A stretch of 64,000 bases of DNA, from the NCBI RefSeq assembly GCF_024223415.1, contig NZ_CP100500.1; one strand, written 5' to 3'. Source of the stretch: Escherichia coli. GTDB taxonomy: Bacteria; Pseudomonadota; Gammaproteobacteria; Enterobacterales; Enterobacteriaceae. Positions 1,872-6,032 of this stretch are shown here, one piece after another. How positions within the stretch are numbered: position 1 is the first letter of the stretch; every line of letters begins with the position of its first letter. The notes under the pieces are model-generated. The model saw only the letters and a program-made list of their open reading frames with translations. It ran no database searches and was not told the DNA's origin. The position numbers and the translations under genes are program-made.

Positions 1872-4762
<2,891 letters not shown>

Positions 4763-4846
4763 CGGAGTTTATCCTGTTATCAGTAGGGTAGATGTAGTTG
4801 TTATCAGTCGACGTGACGGAAAAATGCCGATGCTGAAACGGAATTA

Positions 4847-4936
4847 AGAAACCGGTTTCACAAAATCATGAATAGTTGCCACCAAATAAGCAAGAGAGTT
4901 AATTGTTCATTTTTTATATTTGTGAAACCGGTCACC
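4847..4936. promoter_or_regulatory. ascFB/ascG divergent control region with two LacI/GalR-type operator palindromes (putative AscG boxes)
   Basis: agAAACCGGTTTca at 4847-4860 (perfect 12-bp palindrome) and tgAAACCGGTcacc at 4923-4936, between divergent ascF and ascG starts. Confidence 0.55.
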
Positions 4937-5021
4937 TGAATATTTTTCCCGCCGATTGCGCAAGGACAATCGGCAAACGGTGCAGTACACTGCGTTGATT
5001 GCGTGTAAAGGGATGAAAATG

Positions 5022-6032
5022 ATGACGACGATGCTGGAAGTGGCGAAGCGCGCCGGGGTTTCAAAAGCGACCGTTTCCCGCGTGCTTTCAGGTAATGGCT
5101 ACGTCAGCCAGGAGACTAAAGATCGCGTGTTTCAGGCGGTAGAAGAGAGCGGTTACCGTCCAAACTTGCTGGCGCGCAATCTGTCGGCGAAGAGTACTCA
5201 GACGCTGGGGCTGGTAGTGACCAACACGCTTTACCACGGCATTTATTTTAGTGAATTACTGTTTCATGCCGCGCGAATGGCGGAAGAGAAAGGGCGGCAG
5301 TTGCTATTGGCAGATGGTAAACACAGCGCCGAAGAAGAGCGCCAGGCGATTCAGTATCTGCTGGATCTGCGCTGCGACGCGATCATGATTTATCCGCGCT
5401 TTTTAAGCGTGGATGAAATTGATGACATCATTGACGCGCACAGTCAGCCGATAATGGTGCTTAATCGCCGCCTGCGCAAAAATAGCAGCCATAGCGTCTG
5501 GTGCGATCATAAACAGACCAGCTTTAACGCCGTGGCAGAGTTGATAAACGCCGGACATCAGGAGATTGCTTTCCTTACCGGCTCGATGGATTCCCCCACC
5601 AGCATTGAACGTCTTGCCGGGTATAAAGACGCGCTGGCGCAGCATGGTATTGCGCTCAATGAAAAACTTATCGCTAACGGTAAATGGACGCCCGCCAGCG
5701 GGGCCGAAGGGGTAGAAACGTTGCTCGAACGTGGGGCTAAATTTAGCGCGTTAGTTGCCAGTAACGACGATATGGCGATAGGTGCGATGAAAGCGTTACA
5801 CGAGCGCGGCGTAGCGGTGCCAGAGCAGGTGTCAGTTATCGGATTCGATGATATCGCAATTGCCCCCTATATCGTTCCGGCGCTCTCCAGCGTAAAAATT
5901 CCGGTGACTGAGATGATTCAGGAAATTATTGGACGGCTGATTTTTATGCTCGATGGCGGGGATTTCTCACCGCCGAAAACCTTCAGCGGAAAACTGATCT
6001 GCCGCGACTCACTCATTGCTCTTTCGCGATAA
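5022..6032 (+). CDS. ascG: LacI-family repressor AscG
   Basis: ORF 4956..6032; start moved to MTTMLEVAKRAGVSKATVSRVL (HTH) giving 336 aa. Confidence 0.92.
   Translation: MTTMLEVAKRAGVSKATVSRVLSGNGYVSQETKDRVFQAVEESGYRPNLLARNLSAKSTQTLGLVVTNTLYHGIYFSELLFHAARMAEEKGRQLLLADGKHSAEEERQAIQYLLDLRCDAIMIYPRFLSVDEIDDIIDAHSQPIMVLNRRLRKNSSHSVWCDHKQTSFNAVAELINAGHQEIAFLTGSMDSPTSIERLAGYKDALAQHGIALNEKLIANGKWTPASGAEGVETLLERGAKFSALVASNDDMAIGAMKALHERGVAVPEQVSVIGFDDIAIAPYIVPALSSVKIPVTEMIQEIIGRLIFMLDGGDFSPPKTFSGKLICRDSLIALSR

Follow-up and report, generated by a model that had tools for sequence, protein, structure and literature searches.

Two AscG boxes in the ascF-ascG control region of Escherichia coli, one of them superimposed on a CRP site

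The spacer between the divergent genes ascF and ascG of Escherichia coli carries two boxes of similar sequence, one a perfect palindrome and the other an imperfect copy. What does each of them do? They could be paired operators of the repressor encoded alongside, they could be joined by looping, or one of them could belong to another regulator altogether. We examined these boxes in a stretch of 64,000 nucleotides of E. coli DNA (contig NZ_CP100500.1), referred to below as the window. The region is the established control region of the cryptic E. coli arbutin/salicin/cellobiose operon. Positions 4600-5200 are 100% identical to strain SCU-316 and approximately 99% identical to K-12-like strains, and the annotation of the two flanking genes is ascF / ascG. 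The divergent spacer measures 256 bp between the ascF start codon (ATG 4762, minus strand) and that of ascG (ATG 5019/5022, plus strand). It differs from the K-12 spacer by 5 SNPs, all of which lie outside both boxes. Coordinates of the genes and of the elements discussed here are collected in Table 1.

Table 1. Genes and regulatory elements of the asc locus, in window coordinates.
Feature	Position	Strand	Basis
ascB, 6-phospho-beta-glucosidase, 474 aa, intact	1872-3296	-	NF007356 1-474/474, 1085.7 bits (cut-off 623); RefSeq annotation of 100%-identical strain
ascF, PTS cellobiose/arbutin/salicin IIBC, 485 aa, intact	3305-4762	-	NF007311 1-485/485, 1025.8 bits (cut-off 722); annotation
Box 1, primary AscG operator AGAAACCGGTTTCA	4847-4860		Reverse complement is the published PascF site; core conserved; identical in K-12
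Left arm of 14-nt perfect inverted repeat, ACCGGTTTCACAAA	4851-4864		Repeat search; left break point in TUM1226
Predicted ascF -10, CATGAT	4865-4870	-	Phylogenetic footprinting; predicted start near 4858 (+/- 4)
Predicted ascF -35, TTGCTT, 17-bp spacer	4888-4893	-	Phylogenetic footprinting
Right arm of 14-nt perfect inverted repeat, TTTGTGAAACCGGT	4919-4932		Repeat search; right break point in TUM1226
CRP box TGTGAAACCGGTCACC, centre 4928.5	4921-4936		Consensus, ChIP-seq motif, conserved spacing
Box 2, auxiliary AscG site TGAAACCGGTCACC, superimposed on CRP box	4923-4936		GAAACCGGT repeat; two sites reported for ascFB
Predicted ascG promoter: -35 AGGACA 4963-4968, 17-bp spacer, -10 TACACT 4986-4991	4963-4991	+	Conservation of xxGACA and GTGCAGTACACTGCG across genera
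Conserved palindrome GCAGT-AC-ACTGC (GCAGTACACTGC), overlapping predicted ascG -10	4982-4993		Conservation; within GTGCAGTACACTGCG at 4980-4994
ascG, LacI/GalR-family repressor, 336-337 aa, intact	5019-6032	+	332/336 identical to K-12 AscG; Pfam; PDB 3DBI, 3BRQ

The genes on both sides of the spacer are complete. An earlier reading of this DNA, made from the letters alone and called here the first-pass annotation, had described ascG and ascFB as intact, and full-length profile matches bear this out; ascB is intact as well. AscG consists of a Pfam LacI HTH domain at residues 3-48 followed by a periplasmic-binding-protein fold up to residue 330, and it differs from K-12 AscG at 4 amino acids. 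The further step taken in that annotation, from intact genes to a regulatable operon, does not follow. Intact ascG together with intact ascFB is the classical cryptic configuration, and no inducer of AscG is known (PMC3505978). Expression of asc arises on disruption of ascG by IS186 (PMC3505978, Table 1).

A pattern search finds exactly two AscG-like boxes in the ascF/ascG spacer. Box 1 is built around a perfect 12-bp palindrome, GAAACCGGTTTC, at 4848-4859, and its 14-mer has 1 mismatch to the consensus TGAAACCGGTTTCA (13/14). Box 2 contains the 12-mer GAAACCGGTCAC at 4924-4935, and its 14-mer has 3 mismatches to the same consensus (11/14); the left half and the centre are perfect, and the right half is poor. 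The two lie 76 bp apart, measured start-to-start and centre-to-centre alike. The sequences, coordinates and spacing of these AAACCGGT-core boxes had all been given correctly in the first-pass annotation. Ishida, Kori and Ishihama reportedly arrived in 2009 at TGAAACC-GGTTTCA as the AscG box consensus, working on the ascFB promoter of K-12. Allowing up to 3 mismatches, TGAAACCGGTTTCA has 7 matches in the 64-kb window, two of which are boxes 1 and 2. Among 20,000 shuffles of the 256-bp spacer, 1.07% contained one match at this threshold and none contained two, and because no shuffle gave two sites with 3 or fewer mismatches, the pair is not a product of chance. The boxes also share a direct repeat, GAAACCGGT, at 9/9 positions. 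Both are base-for-base as in K-12, where box 1 occupies 2839426-2839439 and box 2 occupies 2839350-2839363.

The primary operator of the AscG dimer is already known, and box 1 corresponds to it. The AscG site taken from PascF (Guharajan 2021, Table S3) reads TGAAACCGGTTTCT, the reverse complement of box 1, and AscG acting on this PascF site at +1 of a synthetic promoter is "a strong repressor" (Guharajan 2021). The earlier proposal of LacI/GalR-type operators in the ascF-ascG control region is right; they are AscG operators, box 1 being the published one. For comparison we assembled 79 loci encoding AscG relatives, with one genome per species; 53 of these have the AACCGGTT core upstream. In all 53, the core of box 1 is invariant and stands in the same place, and the outer positions drift from GAAACC through GGAACC to GGTAACC. 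The core-bearing loci include Escherichia, Citrobacter, Enterobacter, Klebsiella, Raoultella, Phytobacter and Kosakonia, and also Lelliottia, Pseudocitrobacter, Aeromonas, Yersinia, Rahnella, Cedecea and Atlantibacter. Within E. coli, the box 1 40-mer is exact in 2,247 of 4,699 records and nearly all of the others are 1 base off. In the strains sampled, the changed base is the outermost one (A4847G) or a flanking one (C4861T), and never one inside the 12-bp palindrome.

Box 2 is a composite element, a CRP activator site and an AscG-like box at once. The 16-mer TGTGAAACCGGTCACC has 1 mismatch to TGTGA-N6-TCACA and is the sole site in the 64-kb window with 1 mismatch or fewer. In ETEC H10407, the CRP ChIP-seq peak at ascG/ascF carries the motif GGTGACCGGTTTCACA, which is the reverse complement of TGTGAAACCGGTCACC. 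The first-pass annotation was right to see an AscG-type box in the imperfect copy and missed the CRP site at the same position. A CRP-like box lies 74-75 bp centre-to-centre from box 1 in 52/53 orthologous loci, and the CRP boxes found at the position of box 2 read, for example, TGTGATTACGATCACC in Citrobacter and TGTGATTTTGATCGCT in Klebsiella. The spacer AACCGG, which gives the AscG half-site TGAAACCGG, is present only in four Escherichia-type loci and absent from the other 49. These four are E. coli E69, E. coli SCPM-O-B-8794, Escherichia sp. E1V33 and a 99%-identical metagenome-assembled genome labelled Citrobacter. Across the 53 loci, a second AscG core at a conserved position of the spacer is seen in no other genus. 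The retention of the CRP box across genera, together with the restriction of AACCGG to Escherichia-type loci, argues that the CRP site is ancestral at the position of box 2 and that its likeness to an AscG box is derived. With the Escherichia changes, the extended CRP consensus has lost its T and its A (TGTGAT...ATCACA has become TGTGAA...GTCACC), and the site has therefore moved away from CRP and towards AscG.

That ascFB "has two binding sites" is stated in a passage of PMC3505978 with a citation of Ishida 2009. Apart from ascFB, the reported AscG target is the K-12 prpR-prpB spacer (NC_000913.3 348444-348681), which holds four direct TGAAAC repeats (TGAAACGCGG, TGAAACATTGCC, TGAAACGTTAAC and TGAAACGC). 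No full AscG box with 4 or fewer mismatches was found in that spacer, only TGAAAC half-sites, which suggests that AscG can use half-sites and that a single good half-site may be sufficient. Binding of AscG at box 2, with its one good half, is plausible because the prpR-prpB target holds half-sites only. The 2009 abstract of Ishida and co-workers reportedly describes two AscG sites upstream of ascFB, and AscG is said there to repress by interfering with CRP at an overlapping CRP box and with the binding of RNA polymerase; this account fits the arrangement of box 1, box 2 and the CRP site exactly. The box 2 40-mer is exact in 4,544/4,699 E. coli records (96.7%). The segment between the boxes is visibly polymorphic in E. 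coli, where the 40-mer used as a control is biased by the rare alleles that this strain carries there and demonstrates polymorphism, not rigorous relative constraint.

A strict sigma-70 consensus scan of 4700-5080 returned no promoter, and the promoters were therefore predicted from conservation. For ascF, most of the closer orthologous loci have (C/G)ATGAT at a constant distance from the operator. The TTG of the -35 element is invariant in 28/28 aligned spacers, and "CTTG" stands at a fixed position in the 53 loci. Read on the ascF-sense strand, TTG, a 17-bp spacer and (C/G)ATGAT precede box 1 without indels. The predicted ascF promoter matches 7/12 consensus positions, and a promoter this weak, falling below the strict scan, fits dependence on an activator, CRP. 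We infer the exact start sites from these elements; box 1 is predicted to lie at roughly -2 to +12 of the ascF start and so to overlap it, a classical placement for a repressor that sterically excludes RNA polymerase. The centre of the CRP box would be located at about -70.5 from the predicted ascF start (~4858) and at about -70 from the predicted ascG start (~4998). The CRP box would be nearly equidistant (~70 bp) from the two predicted starts, so that a single CRP dimer might serve the divergent promoters jointly. The boxes had been described earlier as bracketing the divergent promoters. This holds for the predicted ascF core promoter, which lies between them, and fails for the predicted ascG promoter, whose conserved -35 and -10 elements lie to the right of box 2 and outside the pair.

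The spacer contains further conserved elements. GTGCAGTACACTGC, which holds the palindrome at 4982-4993, is nearly invariant in the closer loci from Escherichia to Aeromonas, with one position varying in three loci, and the Yersinia/Rahnella group has GTGTAGAAT in its place. The palindrome may be a site for another regulator. The predicted ascF 5' UTR contains a 10-nt perfect direct repeat, TGTTATCAGT, at 4775-4784 and 4799-4808 (24 bp apart), and also CTGTT..ATCAGTAGGGTA, which is conserved in several genera. An ascG-ascF locus is found in Aeromonas rivipollensis and A. media, with an AscG identity of 71-73%. The Aeromonas loci keep the operator (TGGAACCGGTTCCA), the CRP box, the spacing and the ascG-proximal palindrome, and they resemble those of Enterobacteriaceae more closely than the Yersinia loci do, which suggests that the regulated cassette was transferred horizontally as a whole.

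From the anatomy of the spacer we propose a model of repression. An AscG dimer on box 1, on or just downstream of the ascF start, would occlude RNA polymerase. Box 2 lies inside the CRP site, ~70 bp upstream of the predicted ascF start, which would correspond to a class I position. Here we infer that AscG occupies the perfect half-site of box 2 and competes with cAMP-CRP. Repression would then be twofold, with the polymerase blocked and the activator removed. On a synthetic promoter, AscG was almost without effect when its site stood at -61 (Guharajan 2021), and any effect of box 2 would therefore be exerted through competition with CRP and not through direct contact with the polymerase. The model starts from direct observations, namely the sequences, which coincide with published AscG and CRP sites, the conservation pattern and the intactness of the genes. 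Against it stand the poor right half of box 2 (3/14 mismatches), the source for AscG at box 2, which is a secondary citation, and the lack of any sigma-70 promoter passing the strict scan, the start sites being predicted. Taken as a whole, with box 1 as primary operator, box 2 as a site of competition between AscG and CRP, and the ascF promoter between them, we consider the model likely to be correct.

Other explanations of the box pair were weighed against this model. The first-pass annotation raised the possibility of looping, in which AscG dimers on both boxes would touch one another and loop out the 76-bp segment with the ascF promoter, in the manner of LacI/GalR. The geometry is suitable, in that the 76-bp centre spacing falls among 75.5 and 77.5 bp, the published spacings for a stable relaxed LacI loop, and the ascF core promoter sits between the boxes. 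However, AscG ends at residue 336 without a C-terminal tetramerisation segment, and the published LLhA/Q55A chimera with the AscG regulatory domain shows less than 2-fold spacing dependence. All orthologous loci outside Escherichia have a single operator, and the 74-75 bp spacing is explained by a conserved CRP-to-promoter geometry that is older than box 2. The suggestion of looping is thus unsupported, and as the main mechanism we rejected it on the AscG C-terminus, the chimera data and the lack of conservation of the operator pair; that it nevertheless operates seems to us improbable. We give a similarly small chance to box 2 being a CRP site only, with an incidental likeness to AscG boxes and AscG acting through box 1 alone. 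Every other genus does have a CRP box without AACCGG at the position of box 2, the box has 3 mismatches and a displaced right half, and occupancy by CRP has been shown in vivo by ChIP-seq in ETEC. Against this, the 9/9 match of GAAACCGGT continues into a perfect inverted repeat of 14 nt shared with box 1, a length never reached by a spaced inverted repeat in 5,000 shuffles of the spacer (the longest was 13, once). The spacer changes lead from the extended CRP consensus towards an AscG box, box 2 is almost invariant within E. coli, and the secondary source, in the passage cited above, gives two AscG sites at ascFB. A third explanation, that the boxes serve the paralogues GalR/GalS through cross-talk and not, or not only, AscG, is very improbable. 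Both positions have been published as candidate GalR operators on the basis of sequence analysis (2839356, and AAGAAACCGGTTTCAC at 2839425-2839440), but these candidates are in silico and the ascF site is not among the new ChIP-chip-confirmed sites of the same paper (yaaJ, purR, ytfQ). Moreover, the boxes strictly co-occur with ascG adjoining ascF throughout the 53 loci.

The 14-nt inverted repeat formed by the two boxes raises a further alternative, an invertible promoter element by which ascFB would be turned ON or OFF. The predicted -35 and -10 elements lie between the repeats, and one natural isolate carries the corresponding rearrangement. In E. coli TUM1226 (NZ_CP135719.1 2152125-2152253), the 54 bp between the arms (4865-4918) are exactly inverted; this segment has 2 mismatches to the reverse complement of our sequence and 44 to the direct sequence. 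The inversion points the predicted ascF core promoter (-35/-10) towards ascG. Yet the inverted form is a singleton, found in 1 of 4,699 E. coli records, and at this frequency it is to be taken as a rare mutation or an assembly error and not as a switch. The neighbours of the element are ascF and ascG, with no recombinase gene adjoining the locus, and the extended repeat is confined to Escherichia. A fimS-type switch was accordingly rejected on the singleton inversion and the lack of an adjoining recombinase gene, and we regard its chances as close to nil. A set of 31 records at 90-95% identity was considered as further inversion carriers and rejected, TUM1226 alone being inverted.

Insertion sequences in the ascF-ascG promoter region of other strains had been put forward as something to look for. 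None of the 4,699 E. coli records with the locus has an element of at least about 800 bp in 4600-5200, and each covers at least 80% of the segment in one place; shorter elements (less than about 800 bp, such as IS1) could escape this search. The 4.2-kb asc locus is likewise covered to at least 80% in one place in 4,697/4,699 genomes, in a search that would mask insertions of less than about 2.5 kb. There is no match at all to the ascG-ascF region in 728 of 5,426 complete E. coli genomes (about 13%), which is in line with a report that ascG is less prevalent in ExPEC. In one genome (WL164, H40), ascFB has been lost and ascG alone is kept, adjoining an IS621-family element.

How the second box came about can be addressed from the comparison of genera. 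Box 2 could have arisen by rewriting of the 6-bp spacer and inner flanks of an ancestral CRP site, for example from TGTGAyTCCGATCACC to TGTGAAACCGGTCACC, maybe in one templated, quasi-palindrome-correcting mutation for which the half-site of box 1 served as template and by which a short inverted repeat grew to 14 perfect bp. We offer this reading, with the consequences given next, as a tentative one that is less likely than not. If the overlay is as we propose, the activator site has come under the direct control of AscG, which could contribute to asc being so tightly silenced, or "cryptic", in E. coli, where this silence is unusual in its tightness. This provides a testable idea on why asc is silent in E. 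coli despite intact genes. The 14-bp inverted repeat would now also make the promoter segment prone to inversion, as in the one natural isolate, and more generally a promoter can become fragile and invertible when its paired operators form a long inverted repeat. The element is already in the literature, and the analysis has little bearing on genome annotation. It does offer a natural example, within one genus, of a repressor site evolving atop a pre-existing activator site.

The box pair is an already described regulatory element made of textbook-type operators, and the closest known system is the pair of AscG boxes at K-12 ascFB. This is the same locus with both boxes identical, the differences being the 5 spacer SNPs and the 4 amino acids of AscG. 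The operators lac O1/O3 and gal OE/OI are similar in that a promoter has on either side a dyad operator for one and the same LacI-family repressor, and lac O3, like asc box 2, is an upstream operator that overlaps or adjoins a CRP site. Unlike the lac and gal pairs, the asc pair belongs to a repressor with no evidence of dimer-dimer association, and its second operator is not conserved outside Escherichia. The operator of PtxS, a LacI-family regulator of Pseudomonas, has the identical consensus 5'-TGAAACCGGTTTCA-3' and is located at +5 to +18 of kgu, also in the start or early transcribed region. PtxS differs from AscG as a regulator, in its effector (2-ketogluconate) and in its regulon, and the shared 14-bp consensus means that the motif alone does not name the regulator; the genomic context does. 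Finally, the asc spacer resembles class I CRP sites that are overlapped by a specific repressor, with a CRP box ~70 bp upstream of the predicted start lying under a repressor half-site. Here the position is counted from a predicted start and the overlap is lineage-specific, the CRP box of other genera being without the AscG motif. The new aspect is comparative only, and a modest one: Escherichia alone has a second AscG box overlying the conserved CRP site.
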